Of a stretch of 64,000 nucleotides of DNA, positions 1,682 through 58,789 are shown one piece after another. This DNA comes from Candidatus Omnitrophota bacterium (lineage in GTDB: Bacteria; Omnitrophota; Gorgyraeia; Gygaellales; Profunditerraquicolaceae). Within the stretch, counting starts at the first letter, position 1, and the number at the start of each line of letters is the position of its first letter. The DNA lies in assembly GCA_025453395.1 (NCBI GenBank), contig JALOQK010000002.1:410509-474508 (forward strand). The letters run 5' to 3'. The translations under genes and the position numbers were made by a program. The notes beneath the pieces were generated by a model that saw only the letters and a program-made list of their open reading frames with translations, made no database searches and was not told the DNA's origin.

Positions 1682-2078
1682 TTTCAGCTATCAGCTTTCA
1701 GCTATCAGCTTTCAGCAAAGCTTTAATCTCTTTATGAAACCATAAAGCATTGCCGAAAGCTCATCGCATTGTGAATACTTCATAAGAAGAACGCAAAGCT
1801 ATATTAAGAAATCTTTTAAATTCTAAATCAGAACCTGAACCGCTACCTTCAGCTATATTAAGCGCTATTGACACAGACGCTCTTCTTATTTGAGAAGTCA
1901 AACCATAACATTCTGATTCTGGAAATTTACTGGTTTTTAAATACACCTGTTCAATAAAATCCATTGCCTTAGACCATACTTGTAGCTTTTTAAATTTCTG
2001 TATTTCCATCTTTATTGTTGTCTTTGTTTTAGCTGACAGCTGAAGGCTGATGGCTGATAGCTGAAAACTATTTTTTTA
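1682..2078. mobile_element. Palindromic cassette element, copy A. ~36-bp terminal inverted repeats built from t(a/t)tcagc heptamers flank a four-helix-bundle gene.
   Basis: The left arm at 1683-1716 is ttcagctatcagctttcagctatcagctttcagc. The right arm at 2030-2075 is its imperfect reverse complement (~31/36 identity). The whole ~400 bp is ~95% identical to 34104-34495. Confidence 0.65.
1761..2009 (-). CDS. Four-helix-bundle protein of the 23S rRNA intervening-sequence protein / Avd-like family, carried inside the repeat cassette
   Basis: The 82-aa product MEIQKFKKLQVWSKAMDFIEQVYLKTSKFPESECYGLTSQIRRASVSIALNIAEGSGSGS... matches the conserved family pattern (EDLxVWqkA...fpkxExYgLtsQirRAavSIpsNIAEG). 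It looks C-terminally shortened relative to typical ~115-aa members. Confidence 0.75.
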   Translation of the reverse strand: MEIQKFKKLQVWSKAMDFIEQVYLKTSKFPESECYGLTSQIRRASVSIALNIAEGSGSGSDLEFKRFLNIALRSSYEVFTMR

Positions 2079-3137
2079 ATCCAATATTTCTTTCTGCTTA
2101 TCATATATCTGACGAATAGTATCTTCTATATTATACTTATACTCCCACTTAGGATAATGCGATTTAAACTTAGAGACATCGCTTATCCACCAAATATGAT
2201 CCCCAATGCGGTTACGCGGGACATATTCATACTTCATCTTATTACCGGTTGTTTCCTGGCAAATATCAATTGCCTCCAGGACCGAAACATTGGCAAATCT
2301 GCTGCCTCCTATATTATACACTTCCCCCTGCCGCGGGTCTTTAAAAAAATGATAAAAGGCATTGACCAGATCATAAGAATGGATATTATCCCTGACCTGT
2401 TTGCCCTTATAACCAAAAATAGTATAACTTCTTCCGGTAATATTACAGCGCACCAAATAGGATAAAAATCCATGCAATTGGGCTCCGGAATGCGCGGGCC
2501 CGGTCAAACATCCGCCGCGGAAAACAGCCGTGCGCATGCCAAAATACCTGCCATATTCCTGGACCAAAACATCAGCAGATACTTTTGATGCGCCAAACAA
2601 GCTATGCAGACAGTTGTCTATACTCATTGACTCATCTATCCCGTTATAATATTTATGATTCTTAGGCAGCTCATAGCGCGTAGGTAATTCAATTAATTCT
2701 AGGCTATTCGGACGGTCGCCATATACTTTATTGGTAGAAGTAAAAATAAATACCGCCTTTGGGCAAAAAACGCGGGACGCCTCAAGCATAACCAACGTCC
2801 CGTTGGCATTAACCGTGAAATCAACCTCTGGTTCGCGCGCTGCCCAATCATGGGACGGCTGGGCCGCCGCATGCACAACAAGGGCGATACCCTTGGCGTA
2901 TTTCTTAAAGATTTTATCTATCGCTTTTTGATCGCGTATATCCACAGAATAATGCGTATACCCCTTGCAGGACTTTTCCAGCCTCTTTTTATTCCAAAGA
3001 ATGCTCCCGTCAGCGCCAAAGAAATATTTGCGCATATTATTATCAATCCCCACCACATCAAACTTCAACTTAGAAAAAAACTCTACCGCCTCTGAGCCAA
3101 TCAAACCGCATGAACCCGTAATAACCACTACCGCCAC
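2076..3137 (-). CDS. NAD-dependent epimerase/dehydratase (extended SDR)
   Basis: N-terminal [10 protein letters not shown] Rossmann motif, catalytic Y in a YGASK context, and an epimerase-like C-terminus. It is a second paralogue of the 614-1681 type. Confidence 0.7.
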
Positions 3138-24144: not shown

Positions 24145-24248
24145 ACTTCCTCCTAAAGTATTTGATATAATATTATACTATATTTTAAAGGATTTGCTAC
24201 AACAATTTTCTAGCGTATTCTTTAATTTTGACTTTTGACTTTTTACTT

Positions 24249-25964
24249 TTAAATCCCCATGTCGTGCCATGTTAACCGGCTATCCAATTTCCCATCATCA
24301 AAAACCGCGAAATTGGTCATATACGGAAAATAGGGCGGGGTTGTGCCGTTCAACATGCGCGCGTCATAGATAAAATTCCTGCCATAGCCAGTCAACTGGC
24401 CTGAACCCTGGCTAAAGGTGCCGAATGCCCCATAGAAATCCGTAATTGTGCCGCCTAATAAGGTAACATTGCCGCGGGGAGAGCCCTTATTATAATCATC
24501 AACCGTAAATATCCCATTATGCGCCATGACTACCCCGTGCATCACTAAATTATTAGGCGCAGTCTTGGCGATAATCACATCCCCTCCCCAGGAAAGTATC
24601 CCTAAAACATTGTTATACCCGGTAGCATTTAAAGTAGGAGTAGTATTATAATTCTGGTAAGTAATATTATTGGTAATGTTGATGTCACGCTCGCTTGAAA
24701 CAGTAACCTTGGTATTGCCCTCTACTACCCCGGCAAGGCTGGCGATATCATCATTCACATAGATGAGCACGCCCTCATGGCTTACCCCATCGGGTATTCC
24801 GGTATAAACTTTAGTATTACTGCCGTCAACAACGGTTGTGGTATTGGCCGTATAATTCAAAGTAATTACCTTAGTGGTGCCGGAACGGGTAATAGTATAA
24901 ACCGGGCCGGCCGCTCCAACCGACATAACAATTGTAGGATTGTCATTGCTTTGCCCCTGGTTGCCCCGCACATAAATTCCTCCGGTAACCGCTGTGCCGT
25001 TATTGGGGACAAATATCCCGTTAGTATTATCAGGCATTCCGCCTAAGGCTTGAGTCTTAAGTTGGGTTTGAGTAATTGAAGGCGATAGATTAATTATCCC
25101 GAATCCCCGCGTAAATCCTGCATTAAAAATAGGCTTATCCCGCATGACATCCACGCCGGCAACCATAACCGAATTATAATCCGCGTCTTTTGATACGGGG
25201 TTTCCCAGATTATAAAACTGCGCCTTAGTCTGGTGTTGGGTAACTAATTCCGAGAAGGTAGCGCTGGGATCATTGGCAAAACTAAAACGGTCATTAGTAG
25301 AAACAGGCCCGTTGAAATTTGTATCCGCGGTAAACCAGACAGTTGTGCCTGAAGGAGTAGAGTGATGCGAAGTAAAAAGCGCGAATTTAGCGAAGTTATC
25401 GCGGCGGATGGTTATCTTAAATTCTCCTTCCGAAAGCATAACCTGCCTGGTAACTGACGGATTAGTATTTGTAATATTGCCTTGCGAAATAACAGAATAT
25501 TTATAAGGAAATTCAAATATATCCAGAGTAGCGTTAATAGTAGGCGCGCCATTAGCCTGGACTGAAATAACCGCGGAATAATTTCCTTGAATAATGCCGT
25601 CCAAAGAAGAATTCGCGATAGTTAAAGTCGCAACCCCGGAATTCACCGAGAAAGGCGTCCCGGCATTAGGATAGGCGAAAGCGGATAAAACCCCTAAAGG
25701 GTTTGTGGCATAAGCGCTAAAGGTTGACGAAGTAGTAACTTTTGCTATGCGGGAGTTTATATCAATTCGGATGCGCCGGCGCAATTCGCTTACGGCATGA
25801 TTTGCTCCAGCCTCGGCAAGGCTTAACGCCTGAATAGTATATAAATTCCTGTCCGCGGAGCGTTTCTCAGTAAAAACACCGCTAAAATAAGCTCCTACGA
25901 CAATAAGAAGCACCGCCATAACCATCAAAGAAACAGCTAAAACCATTCCTCTATTGTTATTCAT
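24249..25964 (-). CDS. PilX-N-domain large pilus-associated protein (putative minor pilin or tip adhesin)
   Basis: N-terminal hydrophobic helix plus ...ALSLAEAGANHAVSEL... resembles the PilX N-terminal domain. The remainder is an Asn/Thr/Gly/Ser-rich, beta-like region of ~500 aa. Confidence 0.5.
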   Translation of the reverse strand: MNNNRGMVLAVSLMVMAVLLIVVGAYFSGVFTEKRSADRNLYTIQALSLAEAGANHAVSELRRRIRIDINSRIAKVTTSSTFSAYATNPLGVLSAFAYPNAGTPFSVNSGVATLTIANSSLDGIIQGNYSAVISVQANGAPTINATLDIFEFPYKYSVISQGNITNTNPSVTRQVMLSEGEFKITIRRDNFAKFALFTSHHSTPSGTTVWFTADTNFNGPVSTNDRFSFANDPSATFSELVTQHQTKAQFYNLGNPVSKDADYNSVMVAGVDVMRDKPIFNAGFTRGFGIINLSPSITQTQLKTQALGGMPDNTNGIFVPNNGTAVTGGIYVRGNQGQSNDNPTIVMSVGAAGPVYTITRSGTTKVITLNYTANTTTVVDGSNTKVYTGIPDGVSHEGVLIYVNDDIASLAGVVEGNTKVTVSSERDINITNNITYQNYNTTPTLNATGYNNVLGILSWGGDVIIAKTAPNNLVMHGVVMAHNGIFTVDDYNKGSPRGNVTLLGGTITDFYGAFGTFSQGSGQLTGYGRNFIYDARMLNGTTPPYFPYMTNFAVFDDGKLDSRLTWHDMGI

Positions 25965-28017: not shown

Positions 28018-28509
28018 GTGAAATCCCCCTTCCTAAGGTATAATTAACAACCTTTTTGTTTCGCGCTCTTTGGAAGGTAATCCCCTCTTTCCGGTTACTA
28101 TTCTTTACTATAATGATTTCTCTTATTGTAACCTTAAGAGCCAATTACCCTTAGCGCCCGTTGTCCACCTTAAAATAATTATCTCACCCCCTTTCTTTTT
28201 GTCAAGTAAAAAATATGAAGCCCTTCCTATTCAAATCTTATGGCGGAATCCCGACCCCTAACATTCACCTAATTCGGCTAGGGCGTCGGGATAAATAAAA
28301 ACGCCCTAAACACTTGATTTTAGGGCGCAAAATTATTTAAATATTTAAGCACTTTTTTGGCAACGCAGCCCTCCGACTGTGGACATCGGAGCTGTCGCTT
28401 TGCGCCCTAACATTACTGTTAGTTTGCCCTTTTCAATAAGGATGCTAAACCTCTTATTTAAAATATAGCACAAAAAAAGGCCATTTTCAAAGAAATCTTT
28501 TAATGTTCC

Positions 28510-31421: not shown

Positions 31422-33175
31422 TATTTATTATTATACTCTGCGCTGTTTTACCATATCTAAACACTTTAAATGCCAACTTTGTCTGGGATGACGAAGTACA
31501 ACTTGTGCAAAACCCATACATGCAATCTTTTAAATACTTAAAAGATTTCTTTACGCATGATTTTTGGCACGTAGGCATTAACAAACTAGACACCGCTTAC
31601 TACCGGCCGCTTTTTGCCGCCAATCTTATGAGTCAATACGTTCTCTGGGGCAAAAATCCCTTTGGGTACCACCTAATCAACATCCTTTTACATTGCCTAA
31701 TAACCTTGTTAATTTTCAAAATCTTACTTTTGTTAACATCCGACGAAATAATATCTTTTACCGCAAGCCTTATTTTTGCTGTCCATCCAATTCACACAGA
31801 ATCTGTTTCTTTTATAGCTGCAATTGTGGACCTGCAGACTTTTATTTTCATGCTTCTTACTTTCCTCTGTTATATTCTATACCAAAGAAACAGCCGTAAA
31901 ATATTACTTGTGACTGGAGCTGTTTCTTTTGTTGCCGGGCTATTAACCAAAGAAATGGCTGTGATAACACCGTTTCTTATTCTCATAAAGGATGTTTTTA
32001 TCCCGAAAGAAAACAACAAAAAACAAAACATTGTAGCGTATTTTATCTTCTTCTTGATACTCGCAGCATATTTAATGTTTCGCGTTCATCTTTTTGGCAT
32101 AAAACCAAACGATGGGAATCTAGTGTCTTCAAATTTTATCCCCGGGAATACCCCCTATTGGAGATTTCTTACTGTACCTGCGATTATCGCCCGTTACATA
32201 GGGCTTCTTTTTATCCCATACAACATGACTGCAGATTATTTATTTAAAGCCAATAACTCTATTTGGAATATCTATGTTATCTCGGGAATGCTTATTATTT
32301 TACTTTGCATATTCGTAATTATTTTTTTGCGTAAGAAACAGGCGCTGTTATCATTTGCCATCGCATGGTTTGCATTAACCATCCTGCCGGTAAGTAATAT
32401 TTTCCCCCAGGGAAATATCTTTGCAGAGCGTTTCCTCTATATCCCATCACTTGGATTTTGCATCCTAATGGCAGTTGTTTTCTCTTATTTTCCAAAGAGG
32501 CCTCTGGTAACCTGTTTGTTTTACTGCTGGATAATAAGTATGGGCCGCTTAACATGGGAAAGAAATATCGTTTGGAAAAATGATTTAAATTTGTGGATAG
32601 ATACTGTTTCCAAAGTACCCAATAGCCCCAGGGCACATCTAAATCTTGCCGAACAATATTTTCTATATGGAAAAACAAATGAAGCAATATTAGAATTGGA
32701 TACTGCAATAAAGATTTTACCTAATTATAAACAAGCCTATAACGGCTTAGGCCTTGTATTGTATAAGACAGGCGATATAAATGCAGCTATTGCTGCCTAC
32801 CAAAAAGCCATAGCTATTGATCCTAAATATAACGAAGCCTACAACAATATGGCGGCGGCATTAATCGAAAATAAACAATACAAAGAAGCTATAAACGCCC
32901 TAGAAATTGCCATAAACTATAATCCCTATTTAACTTTTGCTTATTACAATCTGGGACAAGCATATGACAAATTAGGAATACCGGATAAGGCAATTGCTGC
33001 TTACGAAAAGTTTATTGCAATAAAGCCTGAATACGCAGTAATATATGCGGATATGGGCAGGCTTTATTACCAAGAAGGCAATACTAAAAAAGCTAAAGAA
33101 TGCTGCCTTAAAGCGCTTGAGCTTGCTCCGGGACACATGCCAGCGCAAGAAATAATAGATAAAATCAGGGATTAG
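31403..33175 (+). CDS. TMTC-like GT-C glycosyltransferase with C-terminal TPR repeats (protein O-mannosyltransferase-like)
   Basis: FVWDDE acidic motif in the first extracytoplasmic loop and ~11 TM helices. At least 5 C-terminal TPR units follow ([32 protein letters not shown]...). Confidence 0.6.
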
Positions 33176-34103
33176 ACTGAAACCAGTGGATGGTTGTTTC
33201 CAAGCCTTCTTGGAGTTTGATTTTTGGCTGCCAACCAAGCAGGCGCCTGGCGCGGGAGATATCGGGTTTTCTTTGTTTGGGGTCATCTTGGGGAAGCGGC
33301 TTATAGATAATCTTGCTTTTAGAATTGGTAATCTTAAGGACCAAATCCGCCAATTCCATAATAGTAAACTCTCCGGGATTGCCTAAATTAACCGGGTCAT
33401 GGAACTTTTTCCCCATTAGGCGGACAATCCCATCCACCAAATCCGAAACATAACAGAAACTGCGGGTTTGCGCGCCCTTTCCATACACAGTCAAAGGTTT
33501 ATTATTCAACGCCTGATAAATAAAATTCGGGACCACCCTGCCATCATTAATTCTCATAAATTCGCCGTAGGTATTGAAAATACGAATTATCCTTGTATCT
33601 ACTTTGTGCGTTCTGTGGTAAGCCATAGTCATTGCTTCGGCAAAACGTTTTGCCTCATCATAGCATCCGCGGATGCCCACGCTATTTACATTTCCCCAGT
33701 AACTTTCCGGTTGAGGATGGACTAATGGATCCCCGTAAACTTCAGAAGTAGATGCCAATAAGAATCCGGCTTTGTTTTTCATCGCCACGCCTAAAGCATT
33801 ATGCGTGCCTAAAGCTCCGGCCTTTAAGGTCTGTATGGGGTGTTTTAGATAATCATCGGGAGATGCGCAAGAAGCAAAATGCAGGACAAAATCCACCTTT
33901 TCCTTTATAGATATGTACTTACTAACATCATGTTTTACAAAACAAAAATGTTTATTTTTGATAATCCCCTCTATATTATCCAAGGAACCGGTAATTAAAT
34001 TATCCATACAAATAACCTGCCAACCGTCTTTAAGCAAACGGTCGCATAAATGCGAGCCGATAAACCCCGCTCCGCCAGTAACAAGAACTTTAGAATAACG
34101 CAT
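33165..34103 (-). CDS. uxs: UDP-glucuronate decarboxylase (UDP-xylose synthase)
   Basis: [13 protein letters not shown]...[34 protein letters not shown] is a near-canonical UXS signature. Confidence 0.85.
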
Positions 34104-34495
34104 TTTCAGCTATCAGCTTTCAGCTATCAGCTTTCAGCAAAGCTTTAATCTCTTTATGAAACCATAAAGCATTGCCGAAAGCTCATCGCATTGTGAACTT
34201 CTCATAAGAAGAACGTAAAGCAATATTAAGAAACCTTTTAAACTCTAAATCAGAACCTGAACCACTGCCTTCAGCTATATTAAGCGCTATTGACACGGCC
34301 GCTCTTCTAACTTGAGAAGTCAAACCATAACATTCTGATTGCGGGAATTTACTGGTTTTTAAATACACCCGTTCAATAAAATCCATTGCCTTAGACCATA
34401 CTTGTAGCTTTTTAAACTTTTGTATTTCCATTTTTATTATTGTCTTTGTTTTTAGCTGACGGCTGAAGGCTGACGGCTGATAGCTGAAAATATTC
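34104..34495. mobile_element. Palindromic cassette element, copy B (~95% identical to 1682-2078). Heptamer TIRs flank a four-helix-bundle gene.
   Basis: Left arm ~34104-34137 and right arm ~34450-34490. The right arm is read through by the upstream epimerase ORF. Confidence 0.65.
34183..34431 (-). CDS. Four-helix-bundle protein (23S rRNA IVS protein / Avd-like family), copy B
   Basis: 82 aa, 75 of 82 residues identical to the 1761-2009 product. Confidence 0.75.
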   Translation of the reverse strand: MEIQKFKKLQVWSKAMDFIERVYLKTSKFPQSECYGLTSQVRRAAVSIALNIAEGSGSGSDLEFKRFLNIALRSSYEKFTMR

Positions 34496-35425
34496 TACCG
34501 TTATTTTTAACCCCTCCGTGAAATTGACTTGCGGCTTAAAACCCAGTAACTTCTTGCTCAATGTCAAATCTGCTTTAGTGCGAAAAACATCGCCTTGGCG
34601 TTTGGGCAAAAATACAGGTTTTATCTTTTTGCCAAGTATTTTATTAAGAATACTGGCTAACTCTAAAACAGAATAATCCCTGCCCCCTGCCACATTAAAA
34701 ACTCCGGATTTAACTTTCCCCTTTAAGGCGCAACTTGCGGCCAATAAATTAGCTTGGACCGCATTGGCCACAAAAGTAAAATCCCGCGATTGCCTGCCGG
34801 TGCCATAAATTGGCATAGCGTTATCACGCAAAAGACAGTCAATGAATTTTGGCACTACTACCGCGTATTCATCATCAAGCGACTGCCGGGGCCCAAAAAC
34901 ATTAAAATAGCGTAAAGATACCGCCGGCACCCCATAATGCAAACTAAAAATCTTGCAATAATATTCCCCTGCAAGCTTACTTAATGCATAAGGCGAAATA
35001 GGCCCGGGGAAAAAAGATTCCTTCTCTGGAAACTTGCTGACATCGCCATACACAGAGCTTGAAGAGGCAAAAACAAACGCTTTCACGTTGTTTTCCCGTG
35101 AAGCCTCTAACATATTAAGAATCCCGCCTATATTTACCTTATTATACACATCAGGATTCTTCATGGACTTAGGCACGCTTCTCAAAGCCGCCTGATGAAA
35201 AACCACATCTACCCCTGAAACAGCCTTGCGGCAGGTATCTCTATCGCAAATATCGCCTTTTATTATCTTAACTTTACCGGATACCCCGGACAAATTATCA
35301 AGCTTGCCGCTTGAGAAATTATCCAAAACCCGCACTTGGCAATTATTTTTTACAAGCGCATCAACAATGTGCGAGCCGATAAACCCGGCGCCACCAGTAA
35401 CCAGTACTTTCTTATTAAAAAACAT
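34412..35425 (-). CDS. NAD-dependent epimerase/dehydratase, UDP-GlcNAc/UDP-Glc 4-epimerase family (WbpP/GalE-like)
   Basis: [26 protein letters not shown] and SSSSVYGD motifs. The last ~24 codons (QLSAVSLQPSAKNKDNNKNGNTKV) are encoded by the repeat arm, so the native C-terminus is probably shorter. Confidence 0.75.
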   Translation of the reverse strand: MFFNKKVLVTGGAGFIGSHIVDALVKNNCQVRVLDNFSSGKLDNLSGVSGKVKIIKGDICDRDTCRKAVSGVDVVFHQAALRSVPKSMKNPDVYNKVNIGGILNMLEASRENNVKAFVFASSSSVYGDVSKFPEKESFFPGPISPYALSKLAGEYYCKIFSLHYGVPAVSLRYFNVFGPRQSLDDEYAVVVPKFIDCLLRDNAMPIYGTGRQSRDFTFVANAVQANLLAASCALKGKVKSGVFNVAGGRDYSVLELASILNKILGKKIKPVFLPKRQGDVFRTKADLTLSKKLLGFKPQVNFTEGLKITVEYFQLSAVSLQPSAKNKDNNKNGNTKV

Positions 35426-35640
35426 TTAGAAAATATCCTTTTATTATCAAATAACCAAACACCAAATCTCAAACACCAAACAAATCCCAATAATCAATTA
35501 CCAATTTACCAAACAAGTTTGGTTTTTGGTGTTTGGTTTTTGGTTATTATTTGGTTATTTAACATTTGGTTATTGGTTATTTCCTACTTTTACCTTGTAA
35601 TTTTTACTTTTGCCTTTTTACTTTTGACTTTTTACTTTCT
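35426..35640. repeat. Long strand-skewed imperfect palindrome (CA-rich arm / TG-rich arm, ccaaacacc units) followed by ttttacttttg direct repeats
   Basis: accaaacaccaaatctcaaacaccaaac...tttggtttttggtgtttggtttttgg forms an inverted repeat of ~60 nt arms. It ends in tttttacttttgcctttttacttttgactttttacttt. Confidence 0.6.
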
Positions 35641-41180: not shown

Positions 41181-41291
41181 TCAGCTTTCAGCCATCAGCC
41201 TTCAGCTTTCAGCAAAAACAAAAATACAATAAGGAAATACCCTGTTTAGTATTTATTATTTTTCTTTTAGCTGATGACTGATAGCTGATAG
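41181..41291. repeat. Empty member of the heptamer-palindrome element family: two inverted arms around a ~55-bp ORF-less core
   Basis: atcagctttcagccatcagccttcagctttcagc ... agctgatgactgatagctgatagctga. It is intergenic between tal and a GGDEF gene. Confidence 0.6.
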
Positions 41292-41295
41292 CTGA

Positions 41296-42297
41296 TTAAC
41301 CCTGACAAACATATATTCGGTTACGCCCAGACTGTTTGGCTTTGTAAAGCGCCTGATCCGCCTTATCAATTAGTTCCTCCTGCGTCCGGCCGTGATCCGG
41401 GAAGAAAGACAAACCAATGCTTATGGTGGCTTTTAGCGTCTCATCATAGGCCTTAACCATGCCCTGTTCAATTGCCTGCCTTATACGTTCAGCCACAAAG
41501 ATGGCTTCTTCCATCTTGGTTTGGGGAAGAAGCAGGATAAATTCCTCTCCGCCAAAACGGCCCAAAAGATCAACCTGACGGCTGTTCTCCTTTATGGAAT
41601 TGCAGATATGCCGCAATATCTGATCCCCAACCAAATGCCCGTAACGGTCATTGCAATTCTTGAAGTGGTCCACATCGATCATCAGTATTGCGAATGTCAA
41701 ACCAAACCTTAATGAACGTTCCAACTCTTGAGCAAACCTTTCCAGATAATAACGCCGGTTAAAAATACCGGTTAGGCTATCAACAATAGACAACTCCTGC
41801 ACCTTAAGGTATAAAAACGCGCGTTTTAAAACAAGCATGAACTGATGCGTTAATATATCAAACTTCTCGCGGTCTTTTTCAGACAAACCCTTGATCAGCA
41901 AATATCCTGCGGCAGGCGAGCCTTTTTGCAGGATAAAAGGGATAACTTCATACCCCAGGACATCTTTTAGATTAGCCGTCTGCCGGACAAACCTGCAGTC
42001 CTGAAAATCTATGTGGCGCTCAATCTCTTCGCGAAAGACCATAAAAAGCTTATCCTCATCAAGATATTTACTGATTTCTTTGGTGATGGTATAAAGTTCC
42101 ATGGTATCAGAGGCATCCCTCTCTATCAAGGCGACCTGCGCTTCAAGCTCTTTATTTTGAGCGTATAGATCATGATAATGCTGCTGCATCTGCTTAGAGC
42201 TTAGAGAAAATTTGAATAATCTTTCCCTGAACCAAAACCTCAAATAGAAAAAACAATATAAAATAAGCGATATAAGTACGGCTATTTTCATAAACAA
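41296..42297 (-). CDS. Diguanylate cyclase (GGDEF) with N-terminal TM and coiled-coil
   Basis: RFGGEEF active-site motif and a predicted RxxD I-site region. Confidence 0.85.
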   Translation of the reverse strand: MFMKIAVLISLILYCFFYLRFWFRERLFKFSLSSKQMQQHYHDLYAQNKELEAQVALIERDASDTMELYTITKEISKYLDEDKLFMVFREEIERHIDFQDCRFVRQTANLKDVLGYEVIPFILQKGSPAAGYLLIKGLSEKDREKFDILTHQFMLVLKRAFLYLKVQELSIVDSLTGIFNRRYYLERFAQELERSLRFGLTFAILMIDVDHFKNCNDRYGHLVGDQILRHICNSIKENSRQVDLLGRFGGEEFILLLPQTKMEEAIFVAERIRQAIEQGMVKAYDETLKATISIGLSFFPDHGRTQEELIDKADQALYKAKQSGRNRIYVCQG

Positions 42298-57411: not shown

Positions 57412-57475
57412 GTTTACATTTTAACTTTTAAACTTTAGCTTTACGTTTTTCGTTTTGCGCTTTAAGCTTAACTGA
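57340..57475. repeat. AT-rich palindromic element (family 2) overlapping the start of the SPOR-domain gene
   Basis: The caaagcgaaaaatgtaaaaccaaaacttaaaattaaaaatttaa arm lies inside the signal-peptide coding region. The complementary T-rich arm (tttacattttaac...tttttcgttttgcgcttt) lies in the 5' UTR. Confidence 0.55.
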
Positions 57476-58789
57476 TATTTTCTTCTGTAGCTCCAATATT
57501 AAACCGTGCCTTCTTTCTTTTTCCGCTTTTGGCACATCATCCGGCATATTCGCGGCTTGCGTATGCGGCCGGGGCGAATACTTAAAGATAAAACCGGCGT
57601 TAAATTCAACTTCTTTTATTAAATCGTAAGTATCTTGAAAATCTTTTTCTGTCTCACCCGGAAATCCTACAATAATATCCGTAGTCAGGGCCCCATTAGG
57701 AACTATTTTACGATATTGCGCCGCTAAATCCAAATAGAATCTTCTGGTATATTGGCGGTTCATTAACTTTAAAATCCGGTCAGAGCCTGATTGCACCGGA
57801 AGATGCAGATATTTCTTAAGTTTGCCGCATTCTGCCATCGCCTTAAAAAGCTCAATACTTGTATCTTTAGGGTGAGAAGTAATAAAACCAAACTCCTTTA
57901 AGCCTTTAACCGCATTGACTGTTTTTAATAAATCCACAAAACTGATTTCTATATCTTTATTTGGAATTTGGGATTTGGAATCTGAGATTTGGGATTTGTA
58001 AGAGTTTACGTTCTGCCCCAGCAAGGTAACGCTTGTGATTCCTAGGGCAACCGCCTCGTTTATTTCTTGCAAGATATCTTCTTTTCTTCTGTGGCGTAGT
58101 GCTTTGCGAGTATAAGGCACGACACAGTATGAGCAAAAGTTAGAACAGCCTTCGGAAATAACAATAAAGGCATGATTTTTATCTTCAAAAAATCCGGTAT
58201 GATAAATCTGCTCCGGCCTGTTTTCGCCGTCTGTCTCCCAAATCTTGCTTTCAAAAAAGCTTTTTGCTTTTAGTTTTTCGCCTTTAGCTGAAGGCTGACA
58301 GCTGACAGCTGACAGCTGACTGATTATTTCTGGGATTTTTGCGATATCCGCCGGCCCGACCACAAAATCCACCTCCGGCGACCTCTCAAACACCGCTTCT
58401 TTATAATTCTGCGCCATACATCCAACAAGCCCTATTATAGGTTTATTTTTCTCACTTTTTCCTTTTTCCTTTTTACTTTTTAGTTTTGTGATCCTCCCAA
58501 TTTCACTCCACACCTTCTCCTCGGCGTGCTGGCGCACAGAACAGGTATTAAGAATAACCACATTTGCTTCTTCCGCCAAACCAGTTATCGTATATCCTGC
58601 CTTCTGCAAAATCCCGGAAATCACCTCGGAATCCCGTAGATTCATCTGACAACCAAAAGTTTTGATAAAAACTTTTGGTTGCCGTGTCCGCGCTGCGCAG
58701 GGTAAAGTTTGCAAAACTTTACCCTGCACGTTTGCAGCCGGACCACTTTGGCGCCCGGACCTATTTCTACTTCTTCTTTGCTCTTCCAT
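57428..58789 (-). CDS. miaB: MiaB-like tRNA methylthiotransferase without a recognisable TRAM domain, carrying several repeat-derived in-frame inserts
   Basis: MTTase N-domain KVFIKTFGCQMNLRDSEV...ILNTCSVRQHAEEKV and radical-SAM core (CSNFCSYC). It ends where the TRAM domain would start. The N-terminal 38 aa are encoded by a palindrome-rich stretch. Inserts KLKSKKEKGKSEKNK, QLSAVSCQPSAKGEK and YKSQISDSKSQIPN are encoded by repeat DNA. Confidence 0.7.
   Translation of the reverse strand: MEEQRRSRNRSGRQSGPAANVQGKVLQTLPCAARTRQPKVFIKTFGCQMNLRDSEVISGILQKAGYTITGLAEEANVVILNTCSVRQHAEEKVWSEIGRITKLKSKKEKGKSEKNKPIIGLVGCMAQNYKEAVFERSPEVDFVVGPADIAKIPEIISQLSAVSCQPSAKGEKLKAKSFFESKIWETDGENRPEQIYHTGFFEDKNHAFIVISEGCSNFCSYCVVPYTRKALRHRRKEDILQEINEAVALGITSVTLLGQNVNSYKSQISDSKSQIPNKDIEISFVDLLKTVNAVKGLKEFGFITSHPKDTSIELFKAMAECGKLKKYLHLPVQSGSDRILKLMNRQYTRRFYLDLAAQYRKIVPNGALTTDIIVGFPGETEKDFQDTYDLIKEVEFNAGFIFKYSPRPHTQAANMPDDVPKAEKERRHGLILELQKKISVKLKAQNEKRKAKV

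Follow-up and report, generated by a model that had tools for sequence, protein, structure and literature searches.

RNase III cutting has been shown experimentally for the intervening sequence (IVS) of Leptospira as well as for that of Coxiella burnetii. The Coxiella IVS, located in helix 45 of the 23S rRNA, is 428 nt long, harbors an S23p open reading frame (ORF) and has a 28-bp terminal stem (Warrier et al. 2016, PMC4990558). Two or three tandem copies of the heptamer GACAGAT and a degenerate one stand directly before its ATG, their number varying among strains; RNase III cuts at the first repeat, within the heptamer stem, and the ORF is decaying and probably untranslated (PMC4990558). In bacteria of the candidate phyla radiation (CPR), ORFs of the protein family PF05635 are found within both 16S and 23S insertions. 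We analyzed a 64,000-nt stretch of DNA from a Candidatus Omnitrophota bacterium (contig JALOQK010000002.1, positions 410,509 to 474,508; hereafter the window), in which two cassettes, A and B, carry a PF05635 gene between inverted arrays of tandem heptamers and are lodged between genes of the short-chain dehydrogenase/reductase (SDR) family.

Intergenic heptamer repeats of the short tandemly repeated repetitive (STRR) and TAACTGA types have remained unexplained since 1990. The TAACTGA repeats of Beggiatoaceae, Cyanobacteria and Bacteroidetes often adjoin start codons (MacGregor, PMC4679880), and the GGGAATC and GGGGAYT heptamer repeats of Xanthomonas and Nostoc include 70-75 inverted pairs (PMC4692102). 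Neither the PF05635 family nor rRNA IVS came up in word searches of these two papers, and we found no description of an association between PF05635 and heptamer arrays in the open-access literature searched.

Anatomy of the two cassettes

Cassettes A (1682-2067) and B (34104-34490), both on the minus strand, differ at 25 of ~387 nt in a pairwise comparison. The original prediction had reported two near-identical segments with ~95% identity; both are present, with their bounds corrected to the above positions, but the identity is ~93.5% and very uneven, the difference being 8% in the ORF versus none across the final 99 nt. Both cassettes are built of the same parts in the same order, namely, a 5' arm, a ~20-nt leader, an 82-codon ORF, a 44-nt tail and a 3' arm:

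2031-2067, minus strand: 5' arm of cassette A, five TCAGCYN heptamers, minus-strand reading UUUUCAGCUAUCAGCCAUCAGCCUUCAGCUGUCAGCU; begins 8 nt past the TAA (2076-2078) of the SDR gene 2076-3137
1761-2009, minus strand: 82-aa ORF of cassette A, PF05635/TIGR02436, truncated, covering profile positions 1-74 of 106
1712-1774, minus strand: out-of-frame remnant of the family C-terminus in cassette A (SQCDELSAMLYGFIKRLKLC and stop); a 65-nt deletion relative to the full-length orthologue L001 lies between the ORF and this remnant
1682-1716, minus strand: 3' arm of cassette A, (GCTGAWA)5; adjoins the ATG (1679-1681) of a CDP-paratose-2-epimerase-like SDR gene (614-1681)
34454-34490, minus strand: 5' arm of cassette B, (TCAGCYN)5, inside the read-through of the epimerase ORF 34412-35425
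34183-34431, minus strand: truncated 82-aa PF05635 ORF of cassette B, 5 amino acids and 11 synonymous codons unlike A
34104-34138, minus strand: 3' arm of cassette B, (GCTGAWA)5, within the 99-nt tract identical to A
34092-34103, minus strand: first four codons (MRYS) of a UDP-xylose-synthase (UXS)-like gene (33165-34103), a chimeric piece that came with the cassette from the start of gene 614-1681

As had been predicted, one arm, the 3' arm, directly adjoins the ATG of an SDR gene beginning MRYS in both copies, and the other abuts or overruns the stop of the upstream SDR gene. In A the 5' arm lies just past this stop, while in B the epimerase ORF has lost its own stop, reads through the arm (..EYFQLSAVSLQPSAKNK..), thereby gains 24 codons, and terminates within the cassette. 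The C-terminus remnant of cassette A likewise runs into an arm, its final codons and stop falling within the first heptamer of the 3' arm.

Both 82-aa ORFs match the proposed protein family above the curated cutoffs, with E-values of 2.5e-27 and 3.3e-26 for PF05635 (95.6 and 92.0 bits, cutoff 33.8), and 87.9 and 85.0 bits for TIGR02436 (cutoff 24). The cassette ORF harbors RASVSIALNIAE, an instance of RxxxSxxxNxxE, the conserved motif of the PF05635 family (PMC3936711), and residues N51, I52, A53, E54 and G55 are invariant in the alignment of relatives. A profile of the subfamily also matches Xcc0516 (PDB 2GSC), whose structure has been solved and is pentameric, at an E-value of 1e-30, as well as 2RLD. 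These matches uphold the assignment to a four-helix-bundle family, but not an intact bundle, since the two ORFs cover only part of the profile and fall short of a complete four-helix domain of about 106-120 residues. Full-length relatives have ~121 aa, the closest one being that of another Omnitrophota metagenome-assembled genome (L001). Compared with L001, both window copies share a deletion of 65 nt, amounting to 22 codons of helices 3 and 4, and a frameshift; downstream of the deletion, the C-terminal end of the family (SQCDELSAMLYGFIKRLK) persists in another frame. In addition, the leader of the cassette ORF has no motif resembling a Shine-Dalgarno (SD) sequence, where the full-length L001 orthologue has AAGGAG. 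Judged by these lesions, the cassette gene appears to be a dead, or at least crippled, remnant without helix 4.

The ORFs of A and B differ by 11 synonymous and 5 non-synonymous codons, corresponding to a synonymous divergence (dS) of 0.33 and a ratio of non-synonymous to synonymous divergence (dN/dS) of 0.10. At such a dS the copies are old, with no recent burst, apart from the 99-nt identical 3' tract (1682-1780 and 34104-34202), which extends from the deletion junction to ATGCG, taking in the 3' arm, and has a probability of about 0.001 at the rate of difference seen in the ORF. The dN/dS prompted us to consider a functional truncated protein. We set this possibility aside, considering it more likely that the low ratio predates the deletion, which sits exactly at the edge of the 99-nt tract, as fits a recent gene conversion. 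Our guess would be that the paralogues diverged under purifying selection and that gene conversion then recently spread the deleted 3' part between the copies. In the two codons immediately before the deletion junction, 4 of 6 bases are unlike between A and B.

The heptamer pattern TCAGCNN/GCTGANN occurs 21 times in the window, compared with 0.04 expected occurrences. In both cassettes the arms consist of five tandem heptamers each, inverted relative to each other, and they pair in the minimum-free-energy folds of the whole cassettes (z of -4.9 for A and -6.9 for B). The isolated arm duplexes have energies of -51.4 and -50.3 kcal/mol, with 33 Watson-Crick pairs across 39-40 aligned positions, and their mismatches are concentrated at the two variable positions of each heptamer, leaving a conserved 5-nt core. 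Neither a promoter nor an intrinsic terminator of their own is in excess over shuffled sequences in the cassettes, the Rfam scan returned nothing at the cassettes, and no rRNA was found in the window. The original prediction had also read the lack of an SD at the downstream epimerase as a sign of control by the element; this turned out to be uninformative, as a strong SD is found before only 21 of 60 ORF starts in the window.

The cassettes are similar to ORF-bearing 23S IVS in carrying the same gene family in sense orientation within ~400 nt and in having a ~30-bp terminal stem, and to the Coxiella IVS also in the tandem heptamers of the arm, which reach a start codon, the variable number of repeats, the decay of the ORF and the lack of a promoter of their own. 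They differ from it in the heptamer, TCAGCNN in the window versus GACAGAT in Coxiella (a class that we saw in Nitrospirota loci). Furthermore, the cassettes are located between SDR genes in mRNA operons instead of an rRNA helix, and RNase III excision, which is experimental for rRNA IVS, is predicted for them by analogy.

Like the STRR, TAACTGA and GGGAATC repeats, the window arrays consist of tandem 7-nt units in operon spacers, often a few nt from a start codon, in some cases as convergent (inverted) pairs and now and then within ORFs; the window unit (T/A)AGCTGA is one base off TAACTGA. Unlike those intergenic repeats, they bracket a gene, and Omnitrophota is a new phylum for such repeats. 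The cassettes also have in common with the Avd protein of diversity-generating retroelements (DGR) a homologous four-helix-bundle fold family, PF05635/cd16375 (PMC10053308). However, no reverse transcriptase (RT), template or variable repeat lies beside either cassette, SDR enzymes being found on both sides, and the subfamily profile has no match to bAvd at an E-value of 1e-3 or below. Therefore, on the lack of an adjacent RT and of a bAvd match, we ruled out a DGR. The direct repeats found in the window are limited to the cassettes with their arms and a 41-nt SDR gene match.

Insertion sites and the origin of copy B

The likeness of A and B reaches as far as the arm on one side and 11-12 nt beyond it on the other, and past the arms no alignment is possible except at the Rossmann motif of the SDR genes. 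To either site there are syntenic relatives without the insert. In two metagenome contigs (L083 and L084), the gene order of site A is conserved, namely, a family 2 glycosyltransferase (GT2), B12-radical-SAM, PQ-loop, SDR-353 and SDR-358, and the two SDR genes overlap as ATGA; the P0134 locus has the same 4-nt SDR overlap according to its gene table. The spacer at site A is 18 nt long in L085, and in L081 it is an 81-nt sequence without heptamers that reads as an unrelated G+C-rich inverted repeat. L001, on the other hand, carries at the orthologous site-A junction a cassette with the full-length 121-aa gene and the SD-like motif, so residence at site A is old. The order of site B (two UDP-glucose dehydrogenases, epimerase and UXS) is conserved in L212, where a 19-nt spacer with an SD separates the genes, and in L211 the site-B genes overlap by 22 nt. 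Since flanking genes overlap or lie less than 20 nt apart in syntenic relatives without the insert, A and B are discrete insertions at stop/start junctions, in agreement with the original prediction.

The location of both A and B between SDR-family genes and the MRYS start of both downstream genes could suggest that the copies are merely part of a larger duplicated segment from a sugar-nucleotide operon. However, the flanking genes, which are members of different SDR subfamilies, align at nothing but the Rossmann motif, separate syntenic orthologues lacking the insert are available for either site, and an MRYS start is alien to UXS proteins. On the unrelated flanks and the separate empty orthologous sites we rejected this explanation, the chance of which we regard as practically negligible.

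The MRYS start of the UXS gene bears on how copy B arose. Among the UXS homologues listed, the other 119 all lack Tyr at position 3, most of them beginning with M-x-K-K-[T/I] and none with MRYS, and M-[KRN]-Y is the start of about 100 of 120 homologues of the gene downstream of site A. As the window UXS begins with MRYS and its first 11 nt are equal to the start of the gene downstream of A, copy B was copied from site A along with 12 nt of host sequence. The native target in L212 reads ..GAATATTTTCAG followed by AAAAAC.., and TTTTCAG is common to it and the outer end of the element, which gives a 7-nt microhomology at the left junction of B. No target-site duplication is present (flanks AAAAATAG and ATGCGC in A, GTAGAATA and ATGCGT in B), and there is no transposase in or beside the cassettes. 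All this fits an origin of copy B from A by microhomology-mediated recombination or template switching at the palindrome base, and not by transposition.

We nevertheless weighed the possibility of a DNA transposon or an element resembling a miniature inverted-repeat transposable element (MITE), with the arms as terminal inverted repeats for a transposase supplied in trans. It would account for the inverted ends, the presence/absence polymorphism at syntenic sites, the short ORF-less derivatives and the occurrence of more than one copy in the genome (within the 64 kb, two copies at dS 0.33 and one ORF-less hairpin). Against it stand the junctions just described, with no target-site duplication, 12 nt of A's host gene carried by B beyond the arm and microhomology to the target, as well as the missing transposase and a dS that leaves no room for a recent burst. 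Moreover, the arms are variable-number tandem repeats of lineage-dependent sequence, and the L001 orthologue speaks for long vertical residence at one site. We thus consider a transposon improbable, and of the ~36-bp inverted heptamer arms originally predicted, the complementary heptamer arrays hold, while the transposon-type terminal inverted repeats do not, given the lack of a target-site duplication and the 12-nt host carry-over. Repetitive extragenic palindromic (REP) sequences and bacterial interspersed mosaic elements (BIME) with their REP-associated tyrosine transposase (RAYT), and MITEs, are similar in that they are short palindromic elements between operon genes, whose ORF-less copies outnumber the gene-bearing ones. 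They differ from the cassettes, whose cargo is no recombinase, whose arms are tandem repeats versus a unique hairpin, which make no target duplications, and whose copying in the window looks microhomology-mediated.

Distribution of the layout and of arrays without the gene

We collected 80 PF05635 loci, 79 of them usable, by a scan of species-representative genomes covering Omnitrophota, CPR phyla, Nitrospirota, Planctomycetota, Bacteroidota and others, and compared the stretch before the ATG with the stretch around and after the stop, taking the 95th percentile of shifted controls as the threshold for complementarity. The flanks are complementary above this threshold in 64 of the 79 loci (median score 27 versus 14), and a 7-nt periodicity is seen on both flanks in 49, with units of 8-9 nt in some Bacteroidota. 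The repeat unit depends on the lineage (TCAGCNN, CAGACNA, TAGTTCC, ATAGTCN, GAGTTCG, GTAGGGA and others), the inverted symmetry being kept, and in many relatives the array encodes the C-terminal codons and stop (..KLKADS or ..KLKAES and stop). Beside the ends of the PF05635 gene, strict heptamer arrays reach 16 times the density that they have elsewhere in the loci. Hence the gene-plus-heptamer-arms layout is family-wide, and it is also the layout of ORF-bearing 23S rRNA IVS. The predicted IVS-like element outside rRNA is borne out by the match to the anatomy of the Coxiella 23S IVS and by inverted arrays being the norm in the 79 loci from many phyla.

In the survey loci, the PF05635 gene is set off from the preceding stop by a median of 52 nt and from the following start by a median of 29 nt, and the neighbor is on the same strand as the gene in 65 of 76 cases upstream and 58 of 75 downstream. 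The 108 neighbors of the relatives fall in 140 Pfam families, e.g., agmatine deiminase/CN-hydrolase, MetH, CbiMQ and FtsZ. A preference for sugar-nucleotide operons, as could be gathered from the SDR setting that both window copies do have, is ruled out by this spread. When the 80 loci were searched for four short conserved rRNA motifs, none was adjacent, a 23S motif in L012 lying 2.2 kb upstream of the gene. A phage vector was rejected, as a relative was present in just one contig of the viral contig collection.

On finished cyanobacterial plasmids, a PF05635 gene with heptamer arrays is found in the cmr2-cmr3 or the cas6-cas4 interval or, placed antisense, in that separating nrdA and nrdB. 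For instance, in Pseudanabaena galeata plasmid pPg_01 (L210, about 1080-1680) the gene stands between cas6 and cas4 with (AAAGCTA)x16 upstream and (AAAGCCA)x10 downstream, and in Nostoc edaphicum plasmid pNe_5 (L207, 1108-1604) inverted (GTAGGGA)n/(TCCCTAC)n arrays surround a gene placed antisense in the spacer between nrdA-like and nrdB. In loci from Nitrospirota and Nitrospinae, further long hairpins of heptamers without an ORF, and duplicate segments of the arms, lie close to the cassette (L015 177-290; L016 2579-2696 and 3345-3460), and L018, L019 and L029 each contain at least 4 different heptamer families within 6 kb.

The window itself also harbors arrays of the cassette type without the gene:

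41181-41297, minus strand: ORF-less TCAGCNN/GCTGANN hairpin, arms 41270-41297 and 41181-41213, ~56-nt spacer
58286-58320, minus strand: solitary array of five GTCAGCT in a MiaB-like methylthiotransferase ORF, in frame, encoding QLSAVSCQPSAK in the UPF0004/Radical_SAM linker

The hairpin directly follows, starting at its stop codon, the GGDEF gene 41296-42297, with a transaldolase gene 75 nt further on, and has an energy of -59 kcal/mol (z -8.7), its stem extending into the spacer. The MiaB-like ORF (57428-58789, minus strand) contains three in-frame arrays, 58442-58487 (AAAAAGT type), 58286-58320 (GTCAGCT) and 57959-57998 (CCCAAAT), which add low-complexity peptides in the UPF0004 domain, the linker and the Radical_SAM domain, respectively.

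In-frame arrays of this kind are among the points that could be raised for the arrays being slippage-prone contingency (phase-variation) switches, in which gain or loss of 7 nt shifts the frame at adjacent gene ends. The unit length is no multiple of 3, the arrays overlap the PF05635 stop and the C-terminus of the epimerase upstream of copy B, and the repeat number differs among Coxiella strains. However, this leaves the inverted pairing and the tie to one gene family unexplained, and the affected C-terminal tails are short and non-conserved; we hold such a switch to be very improbable.

We also scanned metagenomes for (GCTGANN)x4 and obtained 80 loci, mostly on G+C-rich contigs. In these, a complementary partner is present on the side that places the T array 5' and the G array 3' for 35 of 88 arrays, compared with 3 of 87 on the other side. 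The loop sizes are bimodal, with ORF-less hairpins at 0-110 nt and cassettes at 385-501 nt. On one G+C-rich metagenome contig (L090, 425-970), TCAGCNN/GCTGANN arms enclose a 76-aa DUF2007 (PF09413) ORF instead of PF05635.

Arrays of other units also occur in the window. The 213-nt spacer between the UDP-glucose dehydrogenase and epimerase genes (35426-35638) is filled with AACCAAA/TTTGGTT arrays, which are inverted, and with TTTTGAC arrays, and because the same genes overlap by 4 nt in L212, this ORF-less array block is also an insertion. The TTTTGAC unit, found here at 35601-35638, recurs as an array (24215-24255) at the 3' end of gene 24249-25964 (minus strand). The sole Rfam match in the window is a c-di-GMP-I-GGC riboswitch aptamer (28355-28437, minus strand; RF03167, 61.1 bits, gathering score 59).

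RNase III processing, binding sites and implications

We give about an even chance to the cassettes being IVS-type elements of mRNA operons, with arms that pair into a duplex of the RNase III type; it is the homology of architecture with rRNA IVS that makes RNase III processing the best-supported mechanism. On this model, a promoter-less PF05635 gene between inverted 7-nt arrays, lodged at the stop/start junction of co-transcribed genes, would be transcribed by read-through, and the ~36-bp arm duplex would be cut by RNase III. The cut would set the cassette RNA free and part the cistrons on either side of it, so that no more than a very short leader would remain on the downstream SDR gene, and the stem may hide the start codon of this gene until it is cut or unwound. 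In this genome the protein would have been lost, the processing hairpin being what remains, and the element would have spread via recombination or template switching at the palindrome base, without a transposase. The RNase III hairpins of the phage T7 early region and of lambda provide a comparable case of a long duplex between cistrons, where cutting separates and can stabilize messages; those hairpins, however, are short-looped and gene-free, and their function has been demonstrated.

Several observations weigh against cleavage of an arm duplex. The inner stem consists of 5-bp helices with 2-nt internal loops between them, and among the arm mismatches G:U does not outnumber A:C on the sense strand (62 versus 85, with 198 others), which therefore gives no specific pointer to selection on the sense RNA. 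The strength of the arms is unrelated to co-orientation with the neighbors, the arrays are direct rather than inverted in L210, L078 and L079, and in L207 and L209 the gene is antisense to the host operon. Heptamer arrays are also far more common without the gene, as only 3 of the 80 metagenome array loci, on short contigs, carry PF05635. Finally, adjacency to an ORF start is seen in the metagenomes for 19 of 82 arrays in forward orientation versus 4 of 83 in reverse, so the arrays may have a role of their own, e.g., as a protein-binding site, unrelated to RNase III.

Relatives of Avd bind RT and RNA. The arrays might be sites, in repeated form, at which a trans-acting protein binds, perhaps the PF05635 protein itself, with the pairing of the arms being secondary. 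By analogy to RAYT and REP, the gene-bearing cassettes would then be autonomous, and ORF-less hairpins and solitary arrays would be non-autonomous relatives or regulatory targets. The build of the unit, a 5-nt core plus two variable positions into which the arm mismatches mainly fall, would suit a binding site, as would the strong polarity of the partners, the direct-oriented arrays around some genes and the 16-fold enrichment of arrays at PF05635 gene ends, with many others in the same loci. Forward arrays abut start codons as the TAACTGA repeats do (PMC4679880), and the heptamer-rich taxa, i.e., Nostoc, Xanthomonas and Bacteroidetes (PMC4692102, PMC4679880), overlap those returned by the PF05635 search. 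However, divergence is much faster in the heptamer than in the protein, the arms in the window are kept though the protein is truncated, and the gene is seldom present at the metagenome array loci, so that we regard binding sites as rather unlikely.

The same data could be extended to a partnership, genome-wide, of PF05635 proteins with the intergenic heptamer arrays of bacteria (STRR, TAACTGA, GGGAATC and their lineage variants), a proposal we make only tentatively and think unlikely on the whole. An Avd-like protein would bind the repeats, as RNA or DNA, and aid their maintenance, spread or processing, and rRNA IVS, ORF-less hairpins and solitary arrays would all be derivatives or targets of an autonomous, gene-bearing palindromic element.

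The architecture described here joins three puzzles so far treated apart, namely, the ORF-bearing IVS of rRNA, the very common "four helix bundle protein" genes in operons and cas loci, and the intergenic heptamer repeats, so that the question can be put to the test in carriers amenable to culture, among them Nostoc, Pedobacter and Xanthomonas. In annotation, it accounts for unusual C-terminal extensions and N-termini of chimeric origin beside the elements, e.g., the 24-residue tail of the epimerase and the MRYS start of the UXS. Should RNase III cut at the arms, a lodger that severs polycistronic mRNAs at gene junctions would be present in hundreds of operons across many phyla.

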